DNA from: SAR86 cluster bacterium
GTDB lineage: Bacteria; Pseudomonadota; Gammaproteobacteria; Magnimaribacterales; TMED112
DNA: 64,000 nt
Reading direction: 5' to 3'
Assembly (NCBI GenBank): GCA_023703535.1
Contig: CP097967.1
Span: forward strand, 796,156 to 860,155
Shown: one piece after another, positions 44,109-63,427 of the stretch
Numbering within the stretch: the stretch's first letter is position 1
Layout: the number at the start of each line of letters is the position of its first letter
Notes under the pieces: model-generated
What the model was told of the DNA's origin: nothing
Database searches by the model: none
What the model saw: the letters and a program-made list of their open reading frames with translations, nothing else
Made by a program: the position numbers and the translations under genes

Positions 44109-44742
44109 GTTTGATACCTTAGAAACCTGGCAGCATGCTATTTGCAAACATCTTAGTCGTTTTAGCTCAGATGCTAATCTAATAGTTCCTGGAGGTTCAA
44201 CGCCTATTTTTTTATTTAAAAAATTTTTTAATGAAAAAAGATTTAACCAATTGATTTTAAGCGACGAAAGAATTACGAGTGATAAGGAGAGAAGTAATTT
44301 TCTTACAATATCTTCTTTAACAAATTCCAATATTTTTAAGTTATGTGATTTTCCAATTAGTAACCATAAAAATATTTCATTAAACAAGATCTCCGATGCT
44401 TTGAATAAGATCAAACATCCTGATATTGCTTTACTTGGATTGGGTGATGATGGTCACTATGCATCAATATTTCCCTCAACCGAAGTTATTGAAAATGATG
44501 AAAGTAATAATTTGAAAATAATTTCTACAAAAATTGGTGGTAGTTTTGAATATAGAATTACACTTTCAGAAAAATATATTAAGAGGACTAATGAGATTCT
44601 TTTTATAGCTAAAGGTAAGAATAAATATGATCTTATAAATAAAATTGAAAACAAATCTGAAGAGGTTACTAATTTACCAATCGGCAAGCTTATAAATAGT
44701 TATAATGGGAAACTTAATATAATGTATTGTGTAAATGACTAG
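44089..44742 (+). CDS. 6-phosphogluconolactonase-family protein
   Basis: PGGSTP, SDER, LGLGDDGHYASIFP, RIT. Confidence 0.85.
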   Translation: MNQNIHKFDTLETWQHAICKHLSRFSSDANLIVPGGSTPIFLFKKFFNEKRFNQLILSDERITSDKERSNFLTISSLTNSNIFKLCDFPISNHKNISLNKISDALNKIKHPDIALLGLGDDGHYASIFPSTEVIENDESNNLKIISTKIGGSFEYRITLSEKYIKRTNEILFIAKGKNKYDLINKIENKSEEVTNLPIGKLINSYNGKLNIMYCVND

Positions 44743-45661: not shown

Positions 45662-46286
45662 TATTAAAGAATTAATTTTTAGTTCAAAAATCATCTTTTG
45701 GGACTTTGATGGAGTAATTAAAAAATCAAATCAAGTAAAAAACGACGCTTTCTTCAATTTATTTGAAGATATTAAAAAAGAGCAAAAAGAGTATATTCTC
45801 AGCCATCATATTAACAATCAGGGGTTATCAAGATTTAAAAAAATTCCTTATTACATGGAGTATTTAGGTATAGAGATAAAAGAAAGTAATGTTCAAGCAT
45901 ATCTTAATAGATTTTCGGAATTAGTATTCGATGGTGTGATCAATTCAGATTGGGTTGAGGGGGTGCTTGAAATATTGAGTGAGTTAGATAAATCGATATT
46001 GATTACTGCTACACCACAGGATGAAATTGAAAGAATTATTGAAAAAATTGAAATAGGGAAATTCTTCAAAAAAGTTTATGGCTCACCAAAAACAAAAATT
46101 GAGTGTGTTGAAGATTTTATCGAATCAAAAGATATAAATTTAAATAGCTGCCTATTCATTGGTGATTCAAAATCAGATCTTCAATGTGCTAATCACTTTG
46201 ATATGAAGTTTCTTTTTATCAAGAATGAATACAATAAACACGTGATTGTTGATGAGGATATTCCTCAAGTAGAGAATTTTTTATAG
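45654..46286 (+). CDS. HAD-superfamily phosphatase
   Basis: WDFDGV motif I, ITAT, GSP.K, FIGDSKSD. Confidence 0.88.
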   Translation: MSDIKELIFSSKIIFWDFDGVIKKSNQVKNDAFFNLFEDIKKEQKEYILSHHINNQGLSRFKKIPYYMEYLGIEIKESNVQAYLNRFSELVFDGVINSDWVEGVLEILSELDKSILITATPQDEIERIIEKIEIGKFFKKVYGSPKTKIECVEDFIESKDINLNSCLFIGDSKSDLQCANHFDMKFLFIKNEYNKHVIVDEDIPQVENFL

Positions 46287-46308
46287 CTTAGGTATATTAC
46301 AACTGGAG

Positions 46309-46314
46309 TATAAT
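46309..46314 (+). promoter_or_regulatory. Internal -10 box (TATAAT) upstream of the kdsB-like gene
   Basis: Perfect TATAAT 11 nt before ATG 46326, in the only sizeable gap of this operon. Confidence 0.35.
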
Positions 46315-46325
46315 GTTCAGAATTT

Positions 46326-47075
46326 ATGAATAATACAATCTGCATAATACCGGCTAGGATGGGCTCTTCAAGATTCCCTGGGAAAGCTTTAGAAAAGATT
46401 TGTGATATTGAAATGCTTCATCATTGCTTTATAAGGGCAAAGTTAGCAGAATGCTTTTCCGATATCTACATAGCTACTCCAGATCAGGAAATTCATGATT
46501 TTAGTAAATCTATTGGTTGCAAATCTATAGATACTAAAGATACTCATACAAGATGTACCGAAAGAATAGCTGAAGCAATTACAAAAATTGATGATTCTTT
46601 TGAAAATGTTGTACTTTATCAAGGAGATGAGCCTTTATTTTCTCCTGAAATTTTGAAAATGCTTGCAAATTACATTTCGAATAATGCTGACAGAACAGTT
46701 ACTCTTATGGATGAGATCTCAGAAGAACAAGCCGAAGATTTAAATAATCCAAAAGTAGTAGTTGATCTAAATAATTATGCTGCATTCTTTTCTAGAGCTG
46801 CAATACCAGGATCTCTTAAAGGTCATAGTGAAAAGTTCTTTAAACATATAGGAGTTGTAGCTTTTAAGAAGTCTCTTCTTTATGAATATGCCAATATGGC
46901 TGAGGGTCCTTTAGAACGTGCAGAAAGTATCGATATGTTAAGATTCACTGAACATAGTGTTCCAATTAAAATGCTTTTATGTGAATCTAAAACAATAGGT
47001 GTTGATACGCCTAAAGATTTGGAAGATGTAGAAAAGCTTATGGTCAATGATAGTTATTATTTAAGGTATAAATAA
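46326..47075 (+). CDS. kdsB: CMP-Kdo synthetase-family cytidylyltransferase
   Basis: IIPARMGSSRFPGKAL, QGDEP, LERAESIDMLR, GVDTPKD. Confidence 0.88.
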   Translation: MNNTICIIPARMGSSRFPGKALEKICDIEMLHHCFIRAKLAECFSDIYIATPDQEIHDFSKSIGCKSIDTKDTHTRCTERIAEAITKIDDSFENVVLYQGDEPLFSPEILKMLANYISNNADRTVTLMDEISEEQAEDLNNPKVVVDLNNYAAFFSRAAIPGSLKGHSEKFFKHIGVVAFKKSLLYEYANMAEGPLERAESIDMLRFTEHSVPIKMLLCESKTIGVDTPKDLEDVEKLMVNDSYYLRYK

Positions 47076-47076
47076 A

Positions 47077-47955
47077 ATGGCAAAAAAGGTATTAGTTGTA
47101 GGTGGCTCAGGTTTCTTAGGAAGCCATGTTGCAGATGAACTTACTGAGAAAGGTTATGAAGTAACTATATTCGATCAGAAAAAATCAACTTGGATAAATG
47201 ACAATCAGAAATTTATAGAAAGCGACTTACTTGACAGAGAACATGTAATTAAAAGTCTAGAAGGATTTAACTTTGTCATTCATTTTGCTGGTATCGCAGA
47301 TATTGGAGAGTCAAAAGAAAAACCGCTTGAAACTATCGAAACAAATATTATTGGGACAGCAAATCTTCTTGAAGGATGTAGAAAAAATAAAATTGAAAAA
47401 TTTATTTTTGCTTCATCTGTCTATGTATTCAGCAAATATGGTTCCTTTTATGGAAAATCAAAACAGGCCTGTGAATTACTGATTGAGGAGTATCAAAATG
47501 AGTTTAACCTCGACTATATTCATGTTAGGTATGGCTCTTTATATGGTCCTAGAGCGCAAGAATGGAACGGTTTAAAAAAATACATATCAGAAATTATAAA
47601 AAATAAACAAATAGATTTTTCAGGAAATGGTGAGGAAAAGAGAGAGTACATTCATGTTAAAGATGCTGCAATTATGACGGCAAGTCTTTTAGAGAGCGAT
47701 GAAAAAAATATTGCTGTGAATATTACAGGCCATCAAGTAATAAGCACCTTGGATTTATTTAAATTAATCTTTGAGGTACTGCAACTTGAAGAAAAGATTA
47801 ATTTATCAAAAGAATCAAATGTTGTTTCTCATTACAAAATTAGCCCATATAGCTTTCAACCTAAAGAATCAAAGAAACTTGTTCCTAAAAAATTTATAGA
47901 TATTGGCCAAGGAGTATTAGAAATAATTCACGAAATAGAGGATTCTAAGAATTAG
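47077..47955 (+). CDS. NAD-dependent epimerase/dehydratase
   Basis: GGSGFLG, HFAG, ASSVY, YGKSK, RYGSLYGP. Confidence 0.88.
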   Translation: MAKKVLVVGGSGFLGSHVADELTEKGYEVTIFDQKKSTWINDNQKFIESDLLDREHVIKSLEGFNFVIHFAGIADIGESKEKPLETIETNIIGTANLLEGCRKNKIEKFIFASSVYVFSKYGSFYGKSKQACELLIEEYQNEFNLDYIHVRYGSLYGPRAQEWNGLKKYISEIIKNKQIDFSGNGEEKREYIHVKDAAIMTASLLESDEKNIAVNITGHQVISTLDLFKLIFEVLQLEEKINLSKESNVVSHYKISPYSFQPKESKKLVPKKFIDIGQGVLEIIHEIEDSKN

Positions 47956-50819: not shown

Positions 50820-52561
50820 AAGAATATTTAATACGTATTTACTCATTACTTTATGAAGATAAAAAAAGACTTCCATTACTGCTTGTACTGTTTTTACTTA
50901 CTTCATTTTTTGATGCGTTAAGCCTAGCGATTTTATTTCCATTTATACAAATACTTGTGAATTTTCAGGATTTTCAATCTAGTTATGGATGGTTTTTTGA
51001 GAGCATAAACCTTACTTCGAAATCGGAAATTATTACATTCTTAGGCATTACACTTGTTTCACTATTCATTATTAAAGCTCTTGCTTCAATCTTGGTAAAC
51101 TGGGCCATTTTAAGAATAACCTACAATAGACAAGCAAAGATTAAAACATCTCTACTACATAAATACCTTAATATGCATTACAGAAAGTATATAGAAGGAA
51201 ATAGTGCCAGATACATTCAGATGATTCAAACAATGAGTATGCAATTCATTAAAGTTTTGCAAGGATTTTTAAGGCTTCTTTCAGATGGTCTTATTTTTCT
51301 TTCGATAGTAATTGTTTTAGCTATTGTTGAAGGCCCACTTTTAATTTATGTCGGCGGCATGATGATAGTTCTTCTTTTAATATATGACATTTTTTTCAAA
51401 AAACTTTTAGATAGCCAAAGTAGAGCTATTACTGACTCTAGTGTACAAGTCACAAAAACAGTAAATGAATCAATCCAAGGTCTTAAAGAAATTAAGATTC
51501 TTGGAAAACAAAACTTTTTTGAAGATATTCTTAAGGAAAATGTAGACATTTATGCAAAAAATAATATTTATGCTGATCTAATAAGAACGCAGCCAAAACA
51601 CATTATTGAGTTGATATTTGTAATTGCTTTTACTTTGGCAGTTGTGTTCTTTACTCCATTACAAAACGATTTTCAGAGCTTAATACCCACGCTTGGAGTA
51701 TTTCTCTTTGCTGCAATTAGGTTAATGCCTACCCTTAATCAAATGCTTGCTTCTGTAAATGTTCTTAGAATAGGCTACTATCCCACTACCCTTCTTTTTG
51801 AGGACATGACAACAAAACAAGACCTTGAAGAAGATGATTATAAAGCAAATGTCTTAAAAGATGGCTTCACCTCCATGCTTTTGAAAAATGTATTTTTCTC
51901 ATATAAAAATGATAAAGAACATCAATTAAATGGTATTTCATTACAGGTTGATAAAAATAAATCGATAGGTCTTTTTGGACAATCTGGATCAGGAAAAACA
52001 ACTCTTGTCGACGTGATGTTAGGTCTACTAGAGCCAAGTAAAGGCGAGATTCATTTAAATAACAAAATTGTAAAAAATAATAAAGAATTTAGAAATTTAG
52101 TGGCATATATTCCACAAGATATTTTCATAATTAACGACTCAGTAAAAAACAATATAACTTTAACTGGGAGGGATGAAGTTATTGATGATGTTTTATTAGA
52201 AGATGTAGTGTTGAGATCAAGACTTAAAGAGGTTATCAATAATCTCCCTGAGGGAATTAATACAAATATTGGAGAAAGAGGAGTAAAGCTTTCTGGAGGT
52301 CAAAAACAAAGAATTGCTATAGCTCGAGCACTCTATAACAAAAGAGAAGTTCTTATTATGGATGAGGCAACTAGTGCTTTGGATAATAATACGGAAAAAG
52401 AAATAATTGATGAAATAAGAAAGCTAAAAGGTAAAGTTACTATGGTAGTAATAGCGCATAGGCTTACAACACTGCAGCACTGTGATGAAATTTATGAAAT
52501 TAGTAATGGAAGAATTAGTGAAAAATATAACTATGAAGACATAAGTAAAAGTAAAAAATAA
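50816..52561 (+). CDS. ABC transporter permease/ATPase (MsbA/PglK-like glycolipid flippase)
   Basis: TM domain, GQSGSGKT, LSGGQ, MDEATSALD, IAHRL. Confidence 0.92.
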   Translation: MKEYLIRIYSLLYEDKKRLPLLLVLFLLTSFFDALSLAILFPFIQILVNFQDFQSSYGWFFESINLTSKSEIITFLGITLVSLFIIKALASILVNWAILRITYNRQAKIKTSLLHKYLNMHYRKYIEGNSARYIQMIQTMSMQFIKVLQGFLRLLSDGLIFLSIVIVLAIVEGPLLIYVGGMMIVLLLIYDIFFKKLLDSQSRAITDSSVQVTKTVNESIQGLKEIKILGKQNFFEDILKENVDIYAKNNIYADLIRTQPKHIIELIFVIAFTLAVVFFTPLQNDFQSLIPTLGVFLFAAIRLMPTLNQMLASVNVLRIGYYPTTLLFEDMTTKQDLEEDDYKANVLKDGFTSMLLKNVFFSYKNDKEHQLNGISLQVDKNKSIGLFGQSGSGKTTLVDVMLGLLEPSKGEIHLNNKIVKNNKEFRNLVAYIPQDIFIINDSVKNNITLTGRDEVIDDVLLEDVVLRSRLKEVINNLPEGINTNIGERGVKLSGGQKQRIAIARALYNKREVLIMDEATSALDNNTEKEIIDEIRKLKGKVTMVVIAHRLTTLQHCDEIYEISNGRISEKYNYEDISKSKK

Positions 52562-53430
52562 TGAGAGCCTTCTGTTACATTCAAAAAAAATACTATAAGT
52601 GGAAGATTGATCTAATAGCAGATGATTTATTTAAAGGCGAAAAGAAAAATTGTGAAATTGAAATAGTTTATCCAGAAAATTTTTCATTAAATACTCTTTC
52701 CAAAAAGAAGAAATATGATTTTCTAGTTGGCTGCAATGTTGATGATTTTAAATTCCAGCTACTGTATAAATTTTTAGATTTCGATAAATTTATTACCTTT
52801 GATGAGGGTCAAAGAAATATAAATGAAAATGATAAATATTATTCCAAGAATTTTTCTTTTGAAAATCAAAAAAAGTTTTATTTTTTGAATAAAATTTGTG
52901 GCTTTCCATTACCTTTTGGAAAGCTCCTGGAGAAAAGTGATAAACACTATTCGTTTTTTGACCCAAAAATTTTTAATCATCCTATTAAATCGACCACGTT
53001 TCTTAAGAAGAAAAAAATTACAAAAAAGATTACAAAGATATTCTTTGGAGTAAGTAGCAATTGGGTTTTTAGTCATAGAGAAGATCTTTTGAATAAACCA
53101 AAAATCATAGAGAAGAAAATAAATGAAGCAGCTTTGAAAATAAATAAACTGTGTCCTGATCTATACATCCCCCACCCCAGAGAAGATGAGAGAATACTAG
53201 AATTACTTAATGAGAATATTACTGTTGTAAATTGTCCAAATGGAAGTGAGGATTTTGTTAATAAATTAGCTTTAAATAATGAAATTGAGGTATTTACAGA
53301 AAAATCAGGGATAGTTTTTGATCTTAACAAAAAAATAAAAATTTCTTTTATTGATTTATTTAATAGGTTTAGTAAATCTGAATACGACAAGTTTAAAAAT
53401 CAATATAAAGAATTTAAGAAAAGCAATTAA
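52561..53430 (+). CDS. GT52-like CMP-ulosonate (sialyl-type) transferase
   Basis: TFDEG (D/E-D/E-G motif) and PHPRE (HP motif), as in Lst-type sialyltransferases. Confidence 0.7.
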   Translation: MRAFCYIQKKYYKWKIDLIADDLFKGEKKNCEIEIVYPENFSLNTLSKKKKYDFLVGCNVDDFKFQLLYKFLDFDKFITFDEGQRNINENDKYYSKNFSFENQKKFYFLNKICGFPLPFGKLLEKSDKHYSFFDPKIFNHPIKSTTFLKKKKITKKITKIFFGVSSNWVFSHREDLLNKPKIIEKKINEAALKINKLCPDLYIPHPREDERILELLNENITVVNCPNGSEDFVNKLALNNEIEVFTEKSGIVFDLNKKIKISFIDLFNRFSKSEYDKFKNQYKEFKKSN

Positions 53431-53674
53431 ATCGAAATGTTAGGTAAACTGTTGTAAATTGTCCAAATGGAAGTGAGGATTTTGTTAATAAATTAGCTTT
53501 AAATAATGAAATTGAGGTATTTACAGAAAAATCAGGGATAGTTTTTGATCTTAACAAAAAAATAAAAATTTCTTTTATTGATTTATTTAATAGGTTTAGT
53601 AAATCTGAATACGACAAGTTTAAAAATCAATATAAAGAATTTAAGAAAAGCAATTAAATCGAAATGTTAGGTAA
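53221..53674 (+). repeat. Exact tandem duplication, 2 x 227 bp (53221-53447 and 53448-53674)
   Basis: Copies compared base by base with no mismatch seen; unit spans the last 69 codons plus stop of the GT52-like gene and the start of the next gene. Confidence 0.95.
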
Positions 53675-54542
53675 AGATAGTAAAAAAAATATTCAATTTC
53701 CCGTACAAAAACAAGGCACACCAAGTGTAGTAGTTTTAGAAGACTTTTTTAATGAAGAATTTATAAGAGAAGCTAATAATGATTTTGAAGAGTTTATAAA
53801 AAAATCATCTGAGGTCGATTTTCTTAGTTTTGGAGAAACACGAAAAAATCTATCTTCAAGAGGATCTAGATATGAGGAAATTGTCAAATCGTCAAAATCT
53901 ATCAACAAAATTTGTGAATATATTAAGTCTGAGGAATTCTTTAAAAAATGTATTAAAAATTCGACTGAAGCATTCAATAAAAAAGGATTAAAAATAAAAA
54001 TTCCAAAATTTAATCAAAATTCCTTTGACTCTCTTAGGTTTGCTAAAAAATTCTCTATCTTATGGGCACTTAATAAGCTTCGCTTTGTTTTGTTTCGAAT
54101 TCCCTTTTTTGGAGACTTATTTGAGAGATTAAGTTTATCTATTTTTGGAAACGTAGCTCCTACTATTGATGTTGCACAATCTGCAATGGGTTATGAAGTT
54201 GGAATGCATACTGATAGCAGATTTAAACTCATGGCCGGAATTATTTATTTAAATACAACAAAAAATGATAGTGACGGGGAAACAGAGTTTTGGAGCTCCG
54301 AAGGTCTTTCAAACCTTGAAAATCAAAAAAGATATCCAGATAAGGAGGATATTAACAATTCCAAACTTTTAATGAGTGTTAAACCTAAGGCGGGAAGAAC
54401 TGTTTTATTCATAAACTCAAATGATGCTTATCATAGTGTTAAGAAATTTAAAGGAGATAAAAGGAACATCATATATTTTTCCTTTTCTGTTCCTATTTTA
54501 GATAATATCTGGAAAACAGATTTTAAAGTTAAATCTCTTTAA
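53664..54542 (+). CDS. 2OG-Fe(II) oxygenase superfamily protein
   Basis: HTD, GIIYLN, GETEFW, AYHSV, R (HXD...H...R triad). Confidence 0.8.
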   Translation: MLGKDSKKNIQFPVQKQGTPSVVVLEDFFNEEFIREANNDFEEFIKKSSEVDFLSFGETRKNLSSRGSRYEEIVKSSKSINKICEYIKSEEFFKKCIKNSTEAFNKKGLKIKIPKFNQNSFDSLRFAKKFSILWALNKLRFVLFRIPFFGDLFERLSLSIFGNVAPTIDVAQSAMGYEVGMHTDSRFKLMAGIIYLNTTKNDSDGETEFWSSEGLSNLENQKRYPDKEDINNSKLLMSVKPKAGRTVLFINSNDAYHSVKKFKGDKRNIIYFSFSVPILDNIWKTDFKVKSL

Positions 54543-55365
54543 TTGCTTCAAGCATGTGTTGATGAACAACATCCTCTTTGCCTACCAGATCATTAGCTAA
54601 ACAAAAGCCTATGACTGCCTGCATAAGATTCATTCGTGAGCCATCAATACAATTAAGAGAAAGAGAGCTTGCATCTCTTAATAGTTTTGAAGGACTGTTT
54701 ATATAATTAACATCGAATAACAGAGCTTCTTTGTTAATTAAACTTAATTGACTAGTTGAAAGAATAGAATCTTCATTATTTCCATCTTTACCTATAGAGG
54801 TGCAATTTATAAGAACATCATAGCTTCCTATATCAAAATTAAGCGAACCATAATCTTTAAAATTCATTCCAAAATCGGTAAATAAACCAGAAATTTCCTG
54901 ATTTCTTCCATAAACATCTACATCAAAATTTTTATTTTGATTAGAAAGTTGATAGCACAATGATTTTGAAACTCCTCCAGTTCCAAGAATGCATACCCTT
55001 TGAATATCTAAATCTTTTTTTACAGAACTAATTGATTCGAGTAAAGCTAAGGTATCAGTATTAGCTGCTGTAAACTTGCCTTCAGAATTAAAGAAACAAT
55101 TTTTTGGCTCAATAAAACTACCATTATCATCTGCAAAATAATTAGCAACAACTTCTTTAAGTGGTGCTGCTACGGCTCCACCAATAAAATCAGGTTTTGT
55201 TGTTTCTGAATCTAAGAATTCTATTGCATCGCTTTCATGCTCTATATCTACAGTAGTCATTTCTGCATCAATATCGAGCGCATTAAAAGCAGCATTCCAT
55301 AAAATAGGAGAACGAGCACCCTTTGAAACATCTTTCCCTATTATTACCGCCCTCTTCATCGTCAA
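54529..55365 (-). CDS. Divergent shikimate dehydrogenase-family protein
   Basis: RSP, PLK, NTD, LGTGG, MNLMQA; several substrate residues changed. Confidence 0.8.
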   Translation of the reverse strand: MTMKRAVIIGKDVSKGARSPILWNAAFNALDIDAEMTTVDIEHESDAIEFLDSETTKPDFIGGAVAAPLKEVVANYFADDNGSFIEPKNCFFNSEGKFTAANTDTLALLESISSVKKDLDIQRVCILGTGGVSKSLCYQLSNQNKNFDVDVYGRNQEISGLFTDFGMNFKDYGSLNFDIGSYDVLINCTSIGKDGNNEDSILSTSQLSLINKEALLFDVNYINSPSKLLRDASSLSLNCIDGSRMNLMQAVIGFCLANDLVGKEDVVHQHMLEAIKEI

Positions 55366-56237
55366 ATTACTTCTTTAGAAACTGCTTTTGCAACGTTATC
55401 CATTTTTTTCATGAGAGAATTAAACGTTTCAAAGTTGATTGGTTGCAAAGGATCAACAGCAGAATTTTCTGGATCTGGATGAACCTCTAACATTATTGAA
55501 TCAGCTCCAGATGCAATTGATGCAAGTGTCATTGGTTCGACCCAATCACGCCAGAAGGTTGCATGGGATGGGTCTGTAGCAACTGGAATATTTGTTATTT
55601 CTTGTGTTGCTGGAACAACTTGTAAATCCAATGAAAATCTAGAAGTTGCCCTGTGAGTATGTGGAATTGACATTCCTCTCTCACATAAAATTAATTTTGT
55701 ACAGCCCTCCTTAAGAGCGTACTCAGCTGCTCCCAACCAATCTCTTAATGAGGCACCATAATGTCGTTTAAGCATTATAGGGAAACCTGTCTTTGCTGAT
55801 TCTACAATTAGAGGATAATTTTGCATGTTTCTAGATCCAATCTGAAGAATATCTGTAGCATCGCATACTGCATCTAAATGTTTTTCTTCCATAACTTCAG
55901 TTATGACAGGTATTTCAACCTCCTCTCTGGCTGATTTTAACCACTTTAGACCATCTAAGCCCGTTTCTGTATATTTCTCATTTCTATAAGGAAAACTTAA
56001 AGGTTTGAAAGCTCCACCTCTTAGAAAACTAGCACCTGAAGCTTTTACTGACTTCGCAGTTTCTATGATGAGTTCTTCTGACTCAACCATGTTTGGACCT
56101 GCCATAACAGGAATCTTTTTACCATTAAAAACAACACCTGCTATTTCGAAAGGTTCTTTTGAAAAATTAGCTACTAAAGGTATTTTGGACTTTATATCCT
56201 CTTCAGTTATATCTTTTCCGGGAAACTTGTTATACAT
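55362..56237 (-). CDS. Divergent type I-beta DAHP/KDO8P synthase-family protein
   Basis: AGPNMVES, RGGAFKP, QIGSRNMQN, LKR, LCERG, DPSH, EVHPDP, AVD; no regulatory domain. Confidence 0.9.
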   Translation of the reverse strand: MYNKFPGKDITEEDIKSKIPLVANFSKEPFEIAGVVFNGKKIPVMAGPNMVESEELIIETAKSVKASGASFLRGGAFKPLSFPYRNEKYTETGLDGLKWLKSAREEVEIPVITEVMEEKHLDAVCDATDILQIGSRNMQNYPLIVESAKTGFPIMLKRHYGASLRDWLGAAEYALKEGCTKLILCERGMSIPHTHRATSRFSLDLQVVPATQEITNIPVATDPSHATFWRDWVEPMTLASIASGADSIMLEVHPDPENSAVDPLQPINFETFNSLMKKMDNVAKAVSKEVI

Positions 56238-57291
56238 CTTGCCCTAGTTTAGCTGATCTCACATCATCAGAAAATGAAATTATTGAATTATTCTCCACAG
56301 ATGAATATAAAGCATGAATATATTTTATTGAATCTAAACTGGATTCTGCACTTGTAGGAAAAATAATTTTTCCTGAATCATTAAAATTTTTACTAATTTC
56401 TTTAAGCATATGATAATGACCGTTACCATAACCATTTTTTACAGTTTCTGAGTTCTCTTTAAGTTCATTTGATAGCTCCACTCCATCAAGCTTAACTCTT
56501 GTAAGCTCATTTAAAGCGATACCTCCAACTGAAATTTGATATTTATCAGTCACCACTTCTAATGATGCTGAAAAATCTTCAGGTCTCACAGCGGTCGTTG
56601 CTTCAATTGTAAAAAATCCACCCTTTAAAAGTGTTCCAGACGCAACAAAAGTATCCTCAGCCTCAAGTTTATTATTGATATTTCCAGAGAAACCAGATAA
56701 AAATTGCGGAGGGCCAAATAAATAAAATAGAGCATCAATATGGTGTATTGCTTGTTGGCTAATTACTCCACCATCTGTTTTCCATCTCCCGTGCCATTCA
56801 TCATTGTAATAATCTTGAAACCTACACCACTGCAATTTAACACTTGCTGAAATGATTTTTCCAAAATCATTTTGTGAAAAGAGATTTTCAATATATTTAA
56901 TAGGTTTATTCAGTCTGTTTTGAAATACACCTCCGTAAAGAACATTTTTTTCTTTAGCAAGTGCCATATTTGCAACAACATCCTCTACGTTAAGACCTAT
57001 AGGTTTTTCACACAGAACATTAACTCCATTTTGTAAAAGTACCTTTGAGTTTTCAGCATGACTGCCTGATGGAGTAGTAATTATTGCAATATCAACATCA
57101 TCTTTGCTTACCTCATCTATTGAAGCAAAGGTCTTACCTGAATTCTCTTTTTCCCATTTGCTCCTTGATTCTGCATACTGGTCTATGCCTACAGAAAAAA
57201 TATATTCATCAGATAAATTTTCTTTAATAACTTCAGCATAATGTTGAGCTGCTCGCCCTAAACCTATGAAAGCTAGTTTTAATTTACTCAA
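56230..57291 (-). CDS. Gfo/Idh/MocA oxidoreductase (WlbA/WbpB-like)
   Basis: GLGRAA, CEKP, QNR, WCRFQDYY..WHGRWKTDGG, QAIHHID. Confidence 0.85.
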   Translation of the reverse strand: MSKLKLAFIGLGRAAQHYAEVIKENLSDEYIFSVGIDQYAESRSKWEKENSGKTFASIDEVSKDDVDIAIITTPSGSHAENSKVLLQNGVNVLCEKPIGLNVEDVVANMALAKEKNVLYGGVFQNRLNKPIKYIENLFSQNDFGKIISASVKLQWCRFQDYYNDEWHGRWKTDGGVISQQAIHHIDALFYLFGPPQFLSGFSGNINNKLEAEDTFVASGTLLKGGFFTIEATTAVRPEDFSASLEVVTDKYQISVGGIALNELTRVKLDGVELSNELKENSETVKNGYGNGHYHMLKEISKNFNDSGKIIFPTSAESSLDSIKYIHALYSSVENNSIISFSDDVRSAKLGQDV

Positions 57292-58609
57292 ATTTCACCT
57301 CAAACTTACTCATTTCTTCTTCAGTGCTTATTTCAATCATATCAGCTTGATTAAGTTGGGGGATAAGATTTACCCTTTTTTGTAAAAAGTTCCCATTCCT
57401 TAAATCTGATGCATTAAGTGTGCACCCAAAACCAAATGGACAAATCATCACTGATGATTCCTCCAATTCTCTTGGTAATAGCTGATTATTTATTGCTATT
57501 TCACTTTCCTCTCCTCTTGTAAAACATATTCTTTTTTCTTCATGGCTATAAAGTGTTGGTAGAAATGCTGATTCGTAAAAACTATCTACCAAATTTTTAA
57601 AACTACTCTGATCTCTAAAAGGGTAGTTAACAGAAGAAAGAGTAATAGAATTAGGTATATATTTTTGATTTTCAAAATCTAAAAGACAATCTTTTAATAC
57701 ATCATTTAAGGAGGTGTCATAGTCTTTTGTGCTTCTATCAAAAATATTGAGTCCAGATTCTTCTGCTTGCTTCAAAGCCTTTTTATCAATTCCACAAAAT
57801 ACTATGTCTTCAAAAACCGAACTTTTTTTTGCATCACTTATAACTTTTCGCAAAAGACCAAGACGAAAGTTGTCATATTTTTCTCTATCAAAAATAATAA
57901 GTATGTCTTTTGTTTTTCCTTTATATTCACAAAGATTTTCACTCTTAAATTCGTCTGCTTCCATTATTTGAACAATTTTTTTAGCTCTTTTTTTATCTGC
58001 TTCCTGATGTATGCCATGATGATGAAAAACTACTGCATCCGGCTCATATACAATCTTGAGTTTATTCTTTATAACTTCTTTTCCCCAAATTCTGTCCTCA
58101 ATATTAGTCACTTCATCATCGAAACGAAATTTCTCCCAGGTTTTTCTTGTAAATGCTGAGTTGGCGTTGTGAAAAAAAGAATCCTTTTCCTGAACTCTCT
58201 TATCATTTCCAAATGTCAAAAATAAATCCCTTTTATCGAGATAATGTGATGAACTTGTGGGTACTTGCTTTCCATAAACACCCGCAATTTTTTCATCTTC
58301 TAAATCACTTACTAAATTTTTAAGCCAATCTTTCTCTTTGGGAATGCAGTGAGCAGACAAACATATCAGATAATCTCCTGAAGAGTTTTCAATTCCATAA
58401 TTTATTGCGTTTCCTGGTTTAAATTCTTTGAGGGTAACTACTTTTACATTCCATTCTTTTGCTTTTTCAACAGTCTTGTCTGTGGAACAGTTATCTACAA
58501 TAATTACCTCAAAATTTTTGTAATCCTGTTTGAAAATTGCATTTAAACAAATAGAAATCCATTTTTCTTCATTCTTTGTTCTAATTATTATGGAAGCTTT
58601 TTTCATCAT
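57284..58609 (-). CDS. GT2 glycosyltransferase with C-terminal degenerate cytidylyltransferase-like domain
   Basis: SIIIRTKNE, VDNCSTD, LSAHC, NANSA, IEDRIW; C-half has YPFR and IEISTEEE echoing NeuA motifs. Confidence 0.75.
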   Translation of the reverse strand: MMKKASIIIRTKNEEKWISICLNAIFKQDYKNFEVIIVDNCSTDKTVEKAKEWNVKVVTLKEFKPGNAINYGIENSSGDYLICLSAHCIPKEKDWLKNLVSDLEDEKIAGVYGKQVPTSSSHYLDKRDLFLTFGNDKRVQEKDSFFHNANSAFTRKTWEKFRFDDEVTNIEDRIWGKEVIKNKLKIVYEPDAVVFHHHGIHQEADKKRAKKIVQIMEADEFKSENLCEYKGKTKDILIIFDREKYDNFRLGLLRKVISDAKKSSVFEDIVFCGIDKKALKQAEESGLNIFDRSTKDYDTSLNDVLKDCLLDFENQKYIPNSITLSSVNYPFRDQSSFKNLVDSFYESAFLPTLYSHEEKRICFTRGEESEIAINNQLLPRELEESSVMICPFGFGCTLNASDLRNGNFLQKRVNLIPQLNQADMIEISTEEEMSKFEVKFE

Positions 58610-59340
58610 ATTTTCTCTGGTACCGGAGGTAAATTGTCAAAATCATTCTCTTTGATCCATTCGGCTGCCTTATTAGCTAAAAATAAATCAAAATTATTAT
58701 GTATGTCTAACGCTGAAAAGCTTCTATTATCTGTTATCAGCTTAACATTGTCACCAATTCTACGCCCATTCCTCCAAAGGTTTGAACGAGATGCACAAGC
58801 TAACCCAGTATCTTCCCTGTATGATTTTCTTCTAACTTGTCTACTCTCATAAACACTCATCCATTCTTTTAGACGTATTGGATTATTATCAATTACCTCC
58901 CAAAAGTTTTTGTGAGTTTCATTAGCGACGAATACACTCTCTAATTCATTATTTTCTTCAAGTGCATCTATAGCATGATCTATCCATCCATCTCTTCTGA
59001 ACAAATCAGTACATGTTAAAAAAACGCATATATCAAAGCTTTGTTTAAATATTTTTTCTGACTCCAATAAAGAATACTTTAATGTCTCCTCAGTGGTTGT
59101 TAAATCACCTGAAACATCACTAGTACGCAAAAACGGAACTTCTGCACCATATTTTAAAGCAACCTCCCTTATGTCTTTATCGTCTGTAGAAACAACTATT
59201 TTCGAAAGTTTCTTAGATCTTTTAGCTGCCTCGATTGGCCATGCAATTAAAGGATGACCCAAGAATTCTCTTAAATTCTTTTTCTCAAGCCCTTTAGAAC
59301 CTCCCCTTGCAGGGATTATTGCTATACTATTACTCTGCAT
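58606..59340 (-). CDS. Acylneuraminate cytidylyltransferase-family protein (NeuA-like)
   Basis: IIPARGGSKGLEKKN, VVSTDD, GAEVPFLR, LDIH. Confidence 0.9.
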   Translation of the reverse strand: MQSNSIAIIPARGGSKGLEKKNLREFLGHPLIAWPIEAAKRSKKLSKIVVSTDDKDIREVALKYGAEVPFLRTSDVSGDLTTTEETLKYSLLESEKIFKQSFDICVFLTCTDLFRRDGWIDHAIDALEENNELESVFVANETHKNFWEVIDNNPIRLKEWMSVYESRQVRRKSYREDTGLACASRSNLWRNGRRIGDNVKLITDNRSFSALDIHNNFDLFLANKAAEWIKENDFDNLPPVPEKI

Positions 59341-59356: not shown

Positions 59357-60523
59357 ATGATAAGTATAGTAATTCCATCTAGAAATGATGACATTGAAGT
59401 TTTTCAAAAAACCATTAACGCAATAAAAAAACAAACTGTATTGCCAAAAGAAATTATTATTGTTGATTCAAGTACTGATAATTCAATAAAAAACTTTTTA
59501 CAAAAGCAAAAATTAAAGCTAATTAATCTTATTTACAAAAAAATTGATGGGTCATTTGCAGGAAAAAGTACAAATATTGGAATGTCTCTTGCAACACAAA
59601 AGTTTATTGGTTTGCTTGATACCAAAACAATTCCAAATGATACATGGATAGAAAAATACATAAAACAATTGGAAAGAGATAACTCAGATTTGATTTTTGG
59701 AAATACAAAATTCTTCTCTAAAAATAGATTTCAAAAAATACTAAGAATTCTTTCATATGGTGACGCGTCACATGAAACAGTTCCTGGAACTATATTTAAG
59801 CGCAGTAAATTCGGCAAAAAAATGTTTTTCATTGAAAATGTCAGATCATCATATGATATTGAGTGGAGAGAGAGACAAAAAACTCTTTTGAAAACTTCTT
59901 TAGGTAATGAGATTGAAATAGAGTATGGAGAATTTCCAAATTCATTCTTGGATGCTGCAAAAAAATACTTTATTTATAGTTTTTATACTGCAATTGTAAA
60001 TGTTCAAAAGGATGCGAAAGATCTATATTTATCAATTTTTATAATCTTATCCGCATTAGTCATACCAAGATGGAATTTTTTTCTTGAAGGCTGGGATGAA
60101 AATCCGCTCTATATTGCAGATGTAACAAAAAAATACTTTTTATCACTATTGGTAATTTTTTTGAGTTTTTTAATTGCATCAAGATTTTTTCCTAAACAAG
60201 TAGAAAATAGGCTTCCATTTATTACTCTTAAATACACAGTTTTTCTTTTTATCTTTCTTTCTGTTTTTAATTGGAATGCAGTAGTGGCTGACTGGGTAGA
60301 GGATACTGTTTTTTACATTCCACATATCACGAAAATTTTTGTGGTTTTAGTTTTGGTTTCCTCTGTATTGGTTAGAGGACTTTTTAAACCAGTAAGCAAC
60401 AAAGTTAAATTAAATTATCTTCTTCCCTTTAGGTGGTTATTTATTGGCACTATTGGGCTAATACTGGATATTGTTAAAGCTCCTGGTTACATAATAGGTT
60501 CCTTGATTTCAAAATTTAGATAA
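59357..60523 (+). CDS. GT2 glycosyltransferase with C-terminal membrane domain
   Basis: SIVIPSRND, IIVDSS, LLD, followed by several TM helices. Confidence 0.8.
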   Translation: MISIVIPSRNDDIEVFQKTINAIKKQTVLPKEIIIVDSSTDNSIKNFLQKQKLKLINLIYKKIDGSFAGKSTNIGMSLATQKFIGLLDTKTIPNDTWIEKYIKQLERDNSDLIFGNTKFFSKNRFQKILRILSYGDASHETVPGTIFKRSKFGKKMFFIENVRSSYDIEWRERQKTLLKTSLGNEIEIEYGEFPNSFLDAAKKYFIYSFYTAIVNVQKDAKDLYLSIFIILSALVIPRWNFFLEGWDENPLYIADVTKKYFLSLLVIFLSFLIASRFFPKQVENRLPFITLKYTVFLFIFLSVFNWNAVVADWVEDTVFYIPHITKIFVVLVLVSSVLVRGLFKPVSNKVKLNYLLPFRWLFIGTIGLILDIVKAPGYIIGSLISKFR

Positions 60524-61253
60524 AACTTTTTATATCAAGAAACTCTGATTCAATGTTGTAAGATTTAGAAATTCTTTTTGGGATTTTTAATGCTTTAATT
60601 TTTAAGCTCTTTGAAAATGAATTCATAAATCTTAAGAAATTAAGTGGACTCCCATTTAAGTCATTTTTATACTCTTGTAATTGTTGAATTATGTAATCTT
60701 TCACAATAAAAATACTCTGATCTGCTAACCCCTCGTCCCAATTTATTTCTATTTTGTTATCAATTGAGAGATGAATATCCTTAACAAAGTCAGAATTTTC
60801 TTTGAGCACATATTTCACATAAGGATTTTTATCAAATATTAAGGGTACAAAAATGTCAGCACCCTCAGAAATATTTAAATGCTTTTCAAATGCAGATGTT
60901 GAATCGATAATAAAAGTATCGCCCCAGCACACAAATATTAGACTACCATTTGCTTTAAAACTACGTAATCCATCTAAAACAGCTTGTCCATCCCCTGAAC
61001 CAGACTCACTTTCAATGAATTTAATCTTAGATAAAAAATGATCCTCAATATTTTTGTTGAACAATTCTTTTGAAGATTTATCTTTAGGTATTGGTATTAT
61101 TATTGTTTCAAAATACTTATTAACTTCCTCTAAAAGATAATTTATCGCTGCTCTACCATTAATTTTTAGTAGTTGCTTTGGTACTGATGATTTCATTCTT
61201 GATGATTTTCCAGCACATGGAATTATAATTTTTCTCAAGAATCTGATCTCCAT
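60516..61253 (-). CDS. Nucleotidyltransferase (GlmU-N/IspD-like fold)
   Basis: IPCAGKSSRM, PKQL, GDGQAV, WGD. Confidence 0.8.
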   Translation of the reverse strand: MEIRFLRKIIIPCAGKSSRMKSSVPKQLLKINGRAAINYLLEEVNKYFETIIIPIPKDKSSKELFNKNIEDHFLSKIKFIESESGSGDGQAVLDGLRSFKANGSLIFVCWGDTFIIDSTSAFEKHLNISEGADIFVPLIFDKNPYVKYVLKENSDFVKDIHLSIDNKIEINWDEGLADQSIFIVKDYIIQQLQEYKNDLNGSPLNFLRFMNSFSKSLKIKALKIPKRISKSYNIESEFLDIKSFI

Positions 61254-63427
61254 TTCGAGCTATTTGCGCCCATTATTAATGATGAAATTTTTAAATTATC
61301 ATGTTTGCCTGAATCAATAGATTCAAAATCTTCAGCGAGTATTTCTTTAAGATCTAATTGATATAATTCACTCATATTTAACCTTATGTATCTGGAATCT
61401 TGTTTTGATGGAGAATTTGAGATAATTACATCAAAAAGTTCAGGTACCTGAAAATTAAGTTTTCCCTTTTGATTTAAATAAAACCTTGCCTGTTTAATTT
61501 GATCTGCAGCTGTAAATTCTGGCGTTTCATTATCATGATCAATATTTGTTATAAAAAACTTTTGTGCTGAAGATTTTGAAATCTCTTCAGTTAATCCTTT
61601 TGTCCAATAAGTTGGATATAAACTGCTGTATTGAGTACCAGGACCATATATTATTATGTCAGCTTTTCGAACTGCTAAAGCAGTATCTTGGCTAAGGTCA
61701 GGGAATGGTGATGATATATTTTCAAGAAATTGTTTTTTCTTAATAAGCCCTGTTAAAGATTCAAATTGTTTCTCTTCTTCTTCTGATAGTGGGTATGTTT
61801 TATAAAAAATTTCAAAAATTGGTGTTTTTCCCTCATAACCTACAATTTCTGACTCGTCTTTCAGAAGCTTTCCATCCTCTGTAAGACCAAAAAGATAACC
61901 AGCTTCTGATGAATTAAGGAAAACCTCATTTGGCAAATTGAAGGCATCTCTCACCATAAGTTCAACTTTCTTTATATCCCCATATTTATGCTCTAGAGAA
62001 CCATAAATAATATTAGACAAGGCAAAATCTTGGATTTCTAATGATTTATTTTGCTCTTCAGAAATTTTTTTAAAATGTGAAAGCGAATCACTAATTATCT
62101 CTTGCATCTGATAATTCATTTTTTGGTAATAAGGGAAAAACTCTGATTTATAATTTTGATTATCTAAAAGCTTAGAAATATCATTTTTAAAATCAAGAAA
62201 GTCACATGATGTACGGCTTTTAAAAAAATCGAGCCCCTCTCCTTCAGGATAATAAAATTCATATTGAGTTTCTTGGACTTTTCTTAAATCAGAAGGTCCT
62301 AAAATTTTGTAATCAAAAAAAGCTCTTATCGCGCCAGTTGAAAGGCCATCATCATAAGCATTAATAATATTTGTTAAATTTAAATTAACGTCATTTACTT
62401 TTGAAAACTCTCTAAGTCCATCACATAAGTTTATCGAGCCTCTTCCTCCTGAAAATACGACTACATTCAAACCATTTTGATTAATATCATAAAATCCTTT
62501 TTTTCCTTGAATACCATGAAGATATCCTTTGAAAAAATAGCGAAGATTTATTAGAAAATTGTGATAATTAGAATGAAAGAATAAAAAAAATAAGCCTGCA
62601 GTAAACTTTAAATTGTGAGCAAGCAAGTATAAAAACCACCCAACCGAGAATGATTTGAAGTTCTTTTTAAGAAATAATAATGATCCTCTTGTTGAGTAAT
62701 ATAACCATTGTTTATTTGCATATTTATTTTTGCTGCCTGTTTTAGTATCGTGATAACCAATAGCTTTCGGAGTAAAGCGATGAATATTTTTCGCTTTTAT
62801 AGAACGGTACATCAGATCATGATCGTCGTAATAGAGAAAGTAATCTTTATCAAACCAACCAATTTCTTTTTCTATTTTTCTGGAAATTAATACCATACAT
62901 CCATTTAGGGCATCAAGAGTTCTAGCTTCAGAGAATTTTTCGTGATTAGTCTCATTAACACCAATACCCTTTGCTATTGCATAGTAAGGTTTTAAGTCGG
63001 CACCAATAGCATGCAATGTATCCTTATTTTGAAAATAAAATACTTTTCCGCCAACAAAAGTATGTTTTTCTGATTTTTCTGCTTCATTAACTAGCTCAGC
63101 AACACAATCTTTATCAAGTACTACATCTTCGTCCATTTTTAGCATGTATTTCCAATCCTCACGAATAACCTTTAAGGCTTCAATATATGAACCTGATGAA
63201 CCAGAATTTAATTTTAAATCTAGAAGTTTTATTTTTTTGTTATCTATTTCCCTAGAAAAGATTTTTTTAATTTCAGATACTGTTCCGTCATTAGAGTTAT
63301 TGTCTACAACAATTACCTCAAATGAATCCTCTGGATAATTTTGTGAAAGAATGGATTGAATGCTTTCATTGATAATGTACTTTCTGTTATAACTTGCTAC
63401 AACGATGCTAACAAAAGGTTTTTTCAT
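61235..63427 (-). CDS. GT2 glycosyltransferase fused to CofD/YvcK (UPF0052) domain
   Basis: N: SIVVASYN, VVDNNSND, MDED, YYDDHD. C: SGGRGS, YDDGLSTG, GPSDLRK, GPGTQYSSLYP. Confidence 0.85.
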   Translation of the reverse strand: MKKPFVSIVVASYNRKYIINESIQSILSQNYPEDSFEVIVVDNNSNDGTVSEIKKIFSREIDNKKIKLLDLKLNSGSSGSYIEALKVIREDWKYMLKMDEDVVLDKDCVAELVNEAEKSEKHTFVGGKVFYFQNKDTLHAIGADLKPYYAIAKGIGVNETNHEKFSEARTLDALNGCMVLISRKIEKEIGWFDKDYFLYYDDHDLMYRSIKAKNIHRFTPKAIGYHDTKTGSKNKYANKQWLYYSTRGSLLFLKKNFKSFSVGWFLYLLAHNLKFTAGLFFLFFHSNYHNFLINLRYFFKGYLHGIQGKKGFYDINQNGLNVVVFSGGRGSINLCDGLREFSKVNDVNLNLTNIINAYDDGLSTGAIRAFFDYKILGPSDLRKVQETQYEFYYPEGEGLDFFKSRTSCDFLDFKNDISKLLDNQNYKSEFFPYYQKMNYQMQEIISDSLSHFKKISEEQNKSLEIQDFALSNIIYGSLEHKYGDIKKVELMVRDAFNLPNEVFLNSSEAGYLFGLTEDGKLLKDESEIVGYEGKTPIFEIFYKTYPLSEEEEKQFESLTGLIKKKQFLENISSPFPDLSQDTALAVRKADIIIYGPGTQYSSLYPTYWTKGLTEEISKSSAQKFFITNIDHDNETPEFTAADQIKQARFYLNQKGKLNFQVPELFDVIISNSPSKQDSRYIRLNMSELYQLDLKEILAEDFESIDSGKHDNLKISSLIMGANSSKWRSDS

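Follow-up and report, generated by a model that had tools for sequence, protein, structure and literature searches.

The window analyzed here is a stretch of 64,000 nucleotides (C1:796156-860155) from the genome of a SAR86 cluster bacterium, which consists of a single contig of 1.07 Mb. Between positions 54529 and 59340 of the window lie five open reading frames (ORFs), all on the minus strand and arranged head to tail, which we refer to as the cassette. In the direction of transcription, they encode a cytidylyltransferase, a fusion protein with a glycosyltransferase family 2 (GT2) domain, a WlbA-like oxidoreductase, a homologue of 3-deoxy-D-arabino-heptulosonate 7-phosphate (DAHP) synthase and a homologue of the shikimate dehydrogenase AroE (Table 1). 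Stop and start codons of successive genes overlap, as a preliminary description made from the DNA sequence had reported, and they do so by 4, 8, 8 and 4 nt (ATGA, TTGAGTAA, ATGTATAA and TTGA); the AroE-like gene has an alternative ATG 6 nt further on, which would leave a 2-nt gap in place of the overlap. The family labels given in that description (NeuA-like, WlbA-like, DAHP-synthase homologue and shikimate-dehydrogenase homologue) agreed with the domain matches and the relatives of solved structure described below.

At least 18 marine metatranscriptome runs contained 35-51% of the sampled words of the stretch, and contigs from four marine metatranscriptomes, 97-100% identical to it, covered 55.1-59.3 kb. 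Each of the four gene junctions was spanned by individual contigs (55963-57685 and 57883-58847, X2; 55125-55576, X1), and metatranscriptome depth was near zero at 53.4-54.4 kb and low past 59.5 kb. Because contigs span all junctions and the depth drops in both flanks, the data fit a single transcript unit comprising the five genes, although contigs of this kind cannot wholly exclude DNA carry-over.

Two of the five genes would be expected from their families to belong to the shikimate pathway, and the preliminary description had proposed to look for canonical copies elsewhere in the genome. These were found: an aroG-type DAHP synthase (DAHPS; 350 aa) and aroE, which adjoins hemF, together with kdsA (in the context pyrG-kdsA-eno), kdsB, aroB (C1:930945) and aroQ (C1:105909). 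The last two lie outside the window, which was correctly said to contain no aroB or aroD/aroQ, and no type I dehydroquinase was found in the genome. We then surveyed 30 species-level genomes of the genus, seven of them of high quality. A search with the AroE model found a core aroE copy in 28 of these, including all seven high-quality genomes, and a second, weaker match in exactly five. The same five genomes carry the DAHPS paralogue, and the two paralogous genes are adjacent there and absent from the other 25. Since the same five genomes hold both paralogues while aroE is present in 28, the pair is accessory and co-inherited, whereas the true shikimate pathway is core, and the DAHPS and AroE paralogues of the cassette are not housekeeping shikimate genes. 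The synthase is 98-99% identical among the five genomes (G010, G016, G017 and G020 among them), and the island that contains it may have moved recently between members of the genus.

The DAHPS paralogue, referred to in the following as the synthase, matched PF00793 (DAHP_synth_1) with 171.6 bits. It fell below the cut-offs of all NCBIfam models for DAHPS and for 3-deoxy-D-manno-octulosonate 8-phosphate synthase (KDO8PS), scoring 259 for TIGR01361 (cut-off 267.75), 296.6 for NF006421 (cut-off 335) and 88.7 for the KDO8PS model TIGR01362 (cut-off 314). Its motif is KPLSF, not the KANRS of KDO8PS, which the genome's own KdsA carries. The match to the NeuB family, PF03102, reached 23.2 bits, barely above the cut-off, and overlapped the DAHPS match; the protein has no SAF domain, the C-terminal domain of NeuB-type synthases. 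Among solved structures, DAHPS was matched with an E-value of 1e-57, compared to 1e-17 for KdsA.

When aligned to solved type I-beta DAHPS, the synthase retains the phosphoenolpyruvate (PEP)-binding segments LRGGAFK, G(S/A)RN (here GSRN), LKR and ERG, and alignment to 1vs1 and 1zco showed it to have the metal-site His, Glu and Asp as well. The metal-binding Cys is replaced by Asn49 (AGPCSVES to AGPNMVES); such an exchange of the DAHPS metal ligand is a mark of the metal-independent KDO8P synthases. KPRTSPY has become KPLSFPY, followed by a three-residue insertion (PYRxxKY), ERGIRTFE is replaced by ERGMSIPHTHR, and DPSHxxG by DPSHATFW. In DAHPS, KPRT supplies the Arg and Thr that bind the phosphate of erythrose 4-phosphate. 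Because the PEP-binding residues are conserved and the Arg of KPRT is lost, the synthase should still use PEP, but its aldose is expected to be another one or to be bound in another way. More than 100 homologues with 68-100% identity were found in marine metagenomes, and the signature residues, together with an N-terminal NKFPGKD segment, were invariant in 16 of them.

A genome scan was carried out with one genome per species, and the best 80 of at least 595 matches were considered. Among these, there was a step in identity between the paralogues, at 50% or more, and ordinary DAHPS of Bacteroidota and Bacillota, at 48% or less. The locus of the SAR86 metagenome-assembled genome (MAG) MED-G79 was 99% identical to the cassette locus, and MAGs or isolates of Rhizobium and Azospirillum also carried the synthase. 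Cultured carriers include Thalassobaculum litoreum, T. fulvum, Prochlorococcus MIT 9302, the Pelagibacter strains HTCC9565 and HIMB1483, and Denitromonas iodatirespirans. In a maximum-likelihood tree, the paralogues formed one clade (SH-aLRT 100) on a long stem beside type I-beta DAHPS, with members from the Alpha-, Beta- and Gammaproteobacteria, Prochlorococcus, Acidobacteriota, Actinomycetota, Nitrospirota, SAR324 and Chloroflexota; branching within the clade does not track organismal relationships. The clade is marked by the signature GPN, KPL[ST]FPYRxxK, ERGxxxxHTH[RK] and DPSHATFW. Of the 60 paralogue-locus rows with a readable motif, 58 had GPN, and KPL[ST]FPYR was present wherever that motif was captured, whereas all 24 canonical controls read GPC, KPR[TS], ERGIRT and DPSHxTG at these sites. 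A basal member from a Nitrospiraceae MAG (L060, synthase at 9001-9858) has KPLSF and the HTH insertion yet keeps the Cys (GPCTVE), which suggests that the change at the aldose site preceded the loss of the metal ligand. The synthase is predicted to be an ulosonate synthase that descends from type I-beta DAHPS.

To see which genes accompany the synthase, flanks of ±9 kb were taken from 56 non-redundant paralogue loci and from 24 canonical DAHPS loci as controls, and the ORFs called in these flanks were searched with the five window proteins and then clustered. The AroE-like gene was the commonest partner (45 of the 56 paralogue loci), followed by the WlbA-like gene (41), the cytidylyltransferase (39) and the GT2 fusion (32). 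In 10 more loci, separate ORFs encode the GT2 and the cytidylyltransferase-like domain, and in two, from one SAR11 subgroup, the GT2 slot was occupied by a different GT-A gene encoding a 280-aa protein. These counts are lower bounds, because several loci are short contigs. None of the 24 control loci held any of the partners. No other genuine gene family occurred in more than 15 of the 56 loci; the next commonest (GT4, ABC exporter, TPR, GT1/28, radical SAM, NeuB, AsnB-like amidotransferase, carbamoyltransferase and DegT aminotransferase) are variable furniture of glycan loci. The five genes, whose conservation as a neighborhood the preliminary description had left to be checked, are thus conserved together across phyla.

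The gene order found in the window recurs in SAR86, many SAR11, Prochlorococcus AG-363-A16 and Denitromonas, and other SAR11 have the order oxidoreductase, AroE-like gene, synthase. In the Thalassobaculum group, the synthase is followed by the AroE-like gene, a gene for a small SAF-domain protein, the GT2 gene, and a gene in which a cytidylyltransferase-like domain is fused to the cytidylyltransferase. The SAF-domain protein (≈185 aa) was seen in six Thalassobaculum-type loci, for example between the AroE-like gene and the GT2 gene at L056:6625-7173. In Nisaea, the synthase is seemingly alone, with NeuA-type genes ≈17 and 44 kb away, apparently on the same scaffold according to estimated coordinates; here, the cassette is probably only spread out. 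In a Pseudomonadales MAG (L013:5495-8599), the WlbA-like gene and the synthase are separated by an inserted gene for a 1035-aa ankyrin-repeat protein. Because the genes are co-conserved while the flanks differ between lineages, this comparison points to a functional cassette that moves as a unit.

The preliminary description had offered a cyclitol as an alternative product. When the AroB protein of the genome was BLASTed against all ORFs from 86 loci, no DHQ (dehydroquinate)-synthase-like cyclase was found in any of the 56 paralogue loci, while the same search matched two of the canonical DAHPS control loci. The lack of a sugar-phosphate cyclase in the paralogue loci makes a carbocyclic product unlikely, and the cyclitol was rejected. 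Nor did the clustered neighbor ORFs of the paralogue loci include a conserved phosphatase, kinase, isomerase or UDP-sugar 6-dehydrogenase, the phosphatase result being a weak negative because proteins of the HAD (haloacid dehalogenase) family are diverse. In the loci searched by BLAST, homologues of the HAD protein of the window occurred in SAR86 relatives and Prochlorococcus MIT 9302 only.

The WlbA-like protein matched the N- and C-terminal domains of the GFO_IDH_MocA family (PF01408, PF02894 and PF22725) and aligned over its full length to 3q2i (E 1e-39, residues 3-339) and 3q2k (E 1e-35), which are WlbA enzymes, UDP-N-acetylglucosaminuronic acid (UDP-GlcNAcA) 3-dehydrogenases of Chromobacterium and Bordetella; in view of this full-length alignment, the label is right. 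The catalytic Lys of EKP and the DxxxH-type His (QAIHHID) are conserved, and the protein has the blocks TTPSGxH, EKP, QNRxN, WxGxWxxDGGxxxxQAxHxxD, VGGxAxNE and YGxGH in common with WlbA.

The AroE-like protein scored only 93-98 bits with models of the AroE family, compared to cut-offs of at least 200 (93.5 against 200.2 for TIGR00507). Across 45 homologues, the catalytic Lys (PLK, K70) and Asp (NTD, D104) and the glycine-rich loop are conserved, but the carboxylate-binding SxS is A-R-S, with an Arg that is invariant in the family, and NVT is AVA. Across phyla, the protein is only 26-34% identical even to members of its own family. Its nearest solved relatives include SdhL HI0607 (1NPY) and a 5-ketofructose reductase (7cok), the latter showing that the AroE fold can reduce a keto sugar.

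The cytidylyltransferase matched PF02348 (CTP_transf_3) with 90 bits. Its best NCBIfam model was TIGR03584 (PseF), with 118 bits against a cut-off of 205.7 and a match to the N-terminal 131 of 217 profile positions, and KdsB models scored it at 51 or less. The nucleotide-binding motif IIPARGGSKG..KN is present and conserved in 42 homologues. The nearest solved relative was 9ftb (E 2.5e-24), which according to its Foldseek title is the Aeromonas caviae CMP-Pse5Ac7Ac synthetase.

The second gene product had been described as a GT2 fusion. Its first ≈200 residues do form a GT2 domain, matching PF00535 (Glycos_transf_2) with 106 bits over residues 6-156 of 441, and an AlphaFold model (predicted local distance difference test score 87.7; predicted template modeling score 0.86) showed two alpha/beta domains. 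The nearest folds of the GT-A half in Foldseek were TarS, TarP, PcManGT and WrtF, which are ordinary inverting transferases. When aligned onto the DxD motif of TarS and PcManGT, this half has S85-A-H87 instead (CLSAHC, 58346-58363), with S85 and H87 invariant in 26 homologues. Transferases with CMP-linked donors need no metal to stabilize a diphosphate, and the missing DxD fits such a metal-independent monophosphate donor, but it fits some other reaction equally well. The modeled fold of the GT-A half cannot tell a transferase from a hydrolase, and the protein is at most a candidate for the installing transferase.

Residues ≈225-441 of the fusion gave no Pfam match in this protein. A profile of this part built from 26 homologues aligned to the family of the stand-alone cytidylyltransferase with 100% probability in hhalign (E 1.7e-41, 207 columns), and Foldseek gave a target-normalized template modeling (TM) score of 0.71 against 9ftb. 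The partner of the GT-A domain is thus a degenerate cytidylyltransferase. Of the nucleotide-binding motif, it has lost GGSKG..KN; almost nothing of the motif is left in the two SAR86 lineages (ILIIFDREKY in place of IIPARGGSKG), and the C-terminal Asp-x-Asp region is not kept. In most lineages, this pseudo-cytidylyltransferase domain is attached to the GT2; the Thalassobaculum group has it fused to the active cytidylyltransferase, and L053 has it as a separate gene, a partner-switching that amounts to Rosetta-stone behavior. We interpret the domain as a module that binds CMP-sugar or as a partner subunit without catalytic activity.

In light of the canonical copies found elsewhere in the genome and the co-conservation of the cassette genes across phyla, the best-supported reading is that the cassette makes an ulosonic acid. 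We consider it probable that the product belongs to the class of CMP-activated 3-deoxy-2-ulosonic acids, made by way of the DAHPS-derived synthase. Our confidence in any particular sugar structure is much less, and the identity of the sugar, whether a heptulosonate or another, and the order of the redox steps are a matter of pure inference. The best reading of the data is that the product is not among the sugars of the known KdsA or NeuB/PseI/LegI routes and that the route itself is undescribed. The proposal of the preliminary description that shikimate-pathway paralogues were recruited to make and activate an ulosonate is therefore retained in its core, without the cyclitol and without the fusion as an assigned installing transferase.

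Domain identities, gene structure and paralogy, the signature residues, co-conservation with a patchy accessory distribution, and transcription are shown by the data; from these observations we infer a scheme for the chemical steps, their substrates, their order and the acceptor. The five genes would act as one polycistronic unit, carried as a mobile accessory cassette. The synthase would condense PEP with an aldose that is not bound in the way erythrose 4-phosphate is, and that would be either non-phosphorylated or carry a different anionic group. The WlbA-like enzyme would oxidize a ring hydroxyl to a ketone and the AroE-like enzyme would reduce the ketone, so that together they would invert or tailor one center, most likely C4 of the ulosonate, as the analogy to quinate/shikimate 3-dehydrogenase and to the NDP-sugar 3-dehydrogenases suggests. 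Quinate and the pyranose form of a 3-deoxy-2-ulosonic acid are close to isosteric: C1(OH)(COOH), C2H2 and C3-OH of the former correspond to C2, C3 and C4 of the latter. By this correspondence, the AroE-like enzyme would act at C4. The same carbon would be the site of a 3-dehydrogenase of the WlbA type, which would act two atoms away from the anomeric center. Activation to the CMP-sugar would fall to the PseF/NeuA-like enzyme, probably in partnership with the degenerate paralogous domain as a subunit, and either the GT-A domain or a neighboring GT52-like enzyme would transfer the sugar into the capsule- or lipopolysaccharide (LPS)-type glycan of the island.

Taken further, the enzymes with the KPL motif might represent a third, so far unrecognized kind of ulosonic-acid synthase for glycans, next to KdsA and NeuB/PseI/LegI: an offshoot of DAHPS that needs no metal and joins PEP to a non-phosphorylated, possibly carboxylate-bearing aldose. 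The sugar would lie outside 3-deoxy-D-manno-octulosonic acid (Kdo), ketodeoxynononic acid (Kdn) and the neuraminic (Neu), legionaminic (Leg) and pseudaminic (Pse) acids, be tailored at one position by the WlbA-like and AroE-like enzymes and be activated with CMP by a heterodimer of active and degenerate cytidylyltransferase, as a strain-variable surface trait of SAR11, SAR86 and Prochlorococcus. We put this fuller proposal forward tentatively, as plausible but somewhat short of probable.

Several points weigh against the proposed ulosonate pathway. The roles given to the KPRT Arg and the metal-binding Cys are transferred from structures of DAHPS and KDO8PS. In the synthase, the beta2-alpha2 loop is lengthened, and its Arg85 and Lys88, both invariant, could still bind a phosphate, in which case a phosphatase would be needed, yet none is conserved in the cassette. 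The similarity to WlbA points to a nucleotide-linked sugar acid as substrate, so that the redox steps may precede the condensation, and Thalassobaculum-type loci are without a WlbA-like gene beside the cassette, although in three of them a WlbA-like gene with 35% identity lies on the opposite strand at a distance of ≈7 kb. The GT-A gene is 37-42% identical across phyla and fixed in its synteny, which is unusual for an acceptor-specific transferase, and we know of no CMP-ulosonate transferase in family GT2. Finally, the metatranscriptome contigs may in part stem from contaminating DNA.

The main rival keeps the same class of product, a CMP-ulosonic or ulosaric acid, but orders the steps as in the Pse and Leg pathways. 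The WlbA-like and AroE-like enzymes would first epimerize a nucleotide-linked sugar acid, for instance a UDP-hexuronate, at C3; the GT-A domain without DxD, together with the pseudo-cytidylyltransferase domain as the part that binds nucleotides, would hydrolyze the nucleotide sugar to a free aldose; the synthase would join this non-phosphorylated, carboxylate-bearing aldose to PEP; and the cytidylyltransferase would activate the product, with the installing transferase encoded outside of the cassette, for example by the GT52-like gene. The full-length match of the oxidoreductase to the UDP-GlcNAcA 3-dehydrogenases fits this order, as do the lost phosphate-binding Arg together with the lack of a conserved phosphatase, the fixed position of the GT-A gene inside a biosynthetic cassette across phyla, and a GT52-like gene adjacent in both SAR86 lineages. 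It would also parallel the known NeuB-type routes, all of which, to our knowledge, free an aldose from a nucleotide sugar prior to condensation. However, the GT-A half folds like ordinary inverting transferases, and no GT-A enzyme is known to us to be a dedicated nucleotide-sugar hydrolase. AroE-fold enzymes are, as far as we know, found to act only on small free acids and sugars and not on nucleotide sugars, no UDP-sugar 6-dehydrogenase is conserved in the paralogue loci, and the Thalassobaculum-type loci have no WlbA-like gene next to the cassette. On balance, we consider this order of steps rather unlikely.

A known sugar made by a variant set of enzymes, that is, a new route and not a new sugar, appears doubtful. 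The candidates would be Kdo, 3-deoxy-D-arabino-heptulosonic acid (DAH) or 3-deoxy-lyxo-heptulosaric acid (Dha), for which we know of no genes. The synthase retains the whole PEP site and is 42-48% identical to true DAHP synthases, and Rhizobium and Azospirillum are among its carriers; Dha is a bacterial LPS component that has been reported from Rhizobiaceae (Russa et al. 1991, in the reference list of PMC5713287). Against this, the genome already has kdsA and kdsB, the motifs at the aldose site are unlike both the KPRT of DAHPS and the KANRS of KDO8PS, and nothing connects the carriers with a known sugar analysis. Lastly, spare or differently regulated shikimate isozymes, or a set for a cyclitol or aminoshikimate-type small molecule, would agree with the Pfam and NCBIfam families and with the public annotation of the two paralogues, but are highly improbable given the full canonical pathway elsewhere, the accessory distribution of the paralogues (5 of 30 genomes of the genus) beside a core aroE, the changes in the Arg for the erythrose 4-phosphate phosphate, the metal Cys and the shikimate-binding SxS and NVT, the cyclase that was found beside two canonical controls and in none of the 56 loci, and the nearly constant company of a cytidylyltransferase and glycosyltransferases.

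The cassette lies in a polysaccharide island that extends from ≈19 kb to the end of the window. Such a setting had been proposed from the start, and it is supported by the WecA-like initiating transferase, YjbH, the Wza/SLBB exporter, the NeuB cluster, a KdsB-like module and the glycosyltransferases (Table 1). The genome has four CTP_transf_3 genes, three of them within the window, and the island accordingly encodes three separate enzymes for activating ulosonates with CMP: besides the cassette, there are two further CMP-ulosonate modules, along with the polysaccharide export genes and the GT52-like gene. The first, of the legionaminic-acid type, comprises two SDR dehydratases/epimerases, a Gfo-like protein, a further SDR, a DegT aminotransferase, a PglD-like acetyltransferase, NeuB with SAF, a hydrolyzing 2-epimerase, a CBS-nucleotidyltransferase (PtmE-like) and its own cytidylyltransferase.

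The second module encodes a protein like 6-phosphogluconolactonase/GlcN6P isomerase, a D-2-hydroxyacid dehydrogenase, a HAD hydrolase, a KdsB-like cytidylyltransferase and an SDR epimerase. Its homologues adjoin the cassette only in the SAR86 relatives L006-L008, which are at 80% identity, and in Pelagibacter HTCC9565, where they lie directly upstream of it (L066:1839-5850). A functional link between this module and the cassette may exist, but the shared loci are too few to claim one.

A GT52-like homologue with 50-53% identity directly follows the AroE-like gene in L006-L008, and none was found in the cassette loci outside SAR86. The GT52-like gene of the window is a candidate CMP-ulosonate transferase with a loose association to the cassette. 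The region of the GT2-CofD/YvcK-like fusion is likewise found beside the cassette in L006-L008, with 75% identity, and not in SAR11 or other loci. The gene for a 2-oxoglutarate (2OG)-Fe(II) oxygenase stands beside the cassette only in its closest relatives (L012 and L014); by analogy with KdoO, which hydroxylates Kdo, the enzyme could hydroxylate the sugar. The protein that combines a HAD phosphatase with an NTP_transferase domain was seen in the nearest relatives only. Also on the plus strand, a 316-aa ORF (43158-44108) gave a weak sulfotransferase match (E 6e-4). Rfam detected no RNA elements in the window.

Table 1. Positions of the cassette genes, their motifs and domains, and other features of the surrounding glycan island, in window coordinates.
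Feature	Position	Strand	Remark
Cytidylyltransferase, 244 aa	58606-59340	-	
N-terminal motif of cytidylyltransferase, IIPARGGSKGLEKKNL	59272-59319	-	
GT2 fusion, 441 aa	57284-58609	-	
GT-A (GT2) domain of the fusion	57950..58609	-	PF00535; GT-A fold in model
C-terminal domain of the fusion	57287..57916	-	Degenerate cytidylyltransferase paralogue (hhalign, Foldseek)
WlbA-like oxidoreductase, 353 aa	56230-57291	-	
EKP motif of WlbA-like protein	56998-57018	-	Kept
DGGxxxxQAxHxxD motif of WlbA-like protein	56734-56778	-	Kept
DAHP-synthase homologue (synthase), 291 aa	55362-56237	-	
Synthase motif AGPNMVES	56079-56102	-	
Synthase motif RGGAFKPLSFPYRNEKY	55971-56021	-	
Synthase motif ERGMSIPHTHRATSR	55638-55682	-	
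Synthase motif DPSHATFW	55551-55574	-	
AroE homologue, 278 aa	54529-55365	-	
AroE-like motif KGARSP	55306-55323	-	Substrate site changed
AroE-like motif GGAVAAPLK	55156-55182	-	Substrate site changed
WecA-like initiating transferase, YjbH, Wza/SLBB exporter			In the island
Legionaminic-acid-type cluster	28945-38222	+	Complete; beside the cassette in the island
HisH/HisF-like glutamine amidotransferase and cyclase pair	40434-41815	+	Inside the island
KdsB-like module	44089-47955	+	Without its own synthase
Fusion of HAD phosphatase and NTP_transferase domains, 456 aa	48406-49776	-	
ABC transporter, several GT2 genes			In the island
GT52-like (sialyltransferase-family) gene	52561..53430	+	PF07922, E 1.9e-9
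2OG-Fe(II) oxygenase gene	53664-54542	+	Convergent with AroE-like gene; 14-nt end overlap
GT2-CofD/YvcK-like fusion, 730 aa, overlapping MobA-like nucleotidyltransferase gene	60516-63427	-	

Full-text literature searches found no description of the cassette. Public records name the synthase 3-deoxy-7-phosphoheptulonate synthase and the AroE-like protein shikimate dehydrogenase, as a result of which metabolic reconstructions of SAR11, SAR86 and Prochlorococcus count the paralogues as aromatic amino-acid genes. If our interpretation is correct, they are instead markers of an acidic surface sugar that has not been described, and of a third enzymatic route by which ulosonic acids are made. The cassette is common to SAR11, Prochlorococcus and many other bacteria, patchily distributed as an accessory set across phyla and found, in the most abundant marine bacteria, in glycan islands that vary from strain to strain; its product is most likely an acidic surface sugar similar to Kdo or sialic acid. 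According to established ideas, such islands are where phage receptors and resistance to grazing are decided. The enzymes of the cassette are small and look soluble.

The synthase of the cassette is of the same (beta/alpha)8 PEP-aldolase family as the type I-beta DAHPS of A. pernix (1VS1), P. furiosus (1ZCO) and T. maritima (1RZM), which represent the unregulated core form, and shares with them 42-48% identity, the PEP blocks and the metal-site His, Glu and Asp. It differs in the Asn that stands for Cys, in KPL(S/T)F with its insertion, in ERGxxxxHTH(R/K) and DPSHATFW, and in the added N-terminal NKFPGKD; it has no ACT or chorismate-mutase domain, it scores below the NCBIfam cut-offs, and its gene is an accessory gene in a glycan island.

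The logic of the Kdo pathway (KdsD, KdsA, KdsC, KdsB and WaaA/GT30 or KpsS/KpsC), from a synthase through a CTP_transf_3 enzyme to a surface glycan, would be the same, and an Asn aligned at the metal position is common to the synthase and the metal-independent KdsA. In contrast to that pathway, the synthase of the cassette is far closer to DAHPS and has no KANRS, there is no isomerase or KdsC-type phosphatase, two oxidoreductases are added, and the candidate transferase is GT2-like. Compared to the nonulosonic acid pathways (NeuC/NeuB/NeuA, PseB-I/PseF and LegB-I/LegF), the cytidylyltransferase is nearest to PseF (9ftb, TIGR03584), and a free aldose may be a common substrate. However, the synthase is not of the NeuB family (PF03102 at ≈23 bits, no SAF domain), and the core cassette is without an aminotransferase, acetyltransferase, dehydratase or hydrolyzing epimerase.

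The oxidoreductase resembles WlbA/WbpB (3Q2I and 3Q2K) over its full length and in its motif blocks, but the cassette has no partner aminotransferase (WbpE/WlbC), and the enzyme is paired instead with an AroE-like reductase. That reductase has the AroE fold, the catalytic Lys and Asp and the glycine-rich dinucleotide motif in common with SdhL HI0607 (1NPY) and 7COK, and differs from them in reading ARS, with its invariant Arg, at SxS and AVA at NVT.

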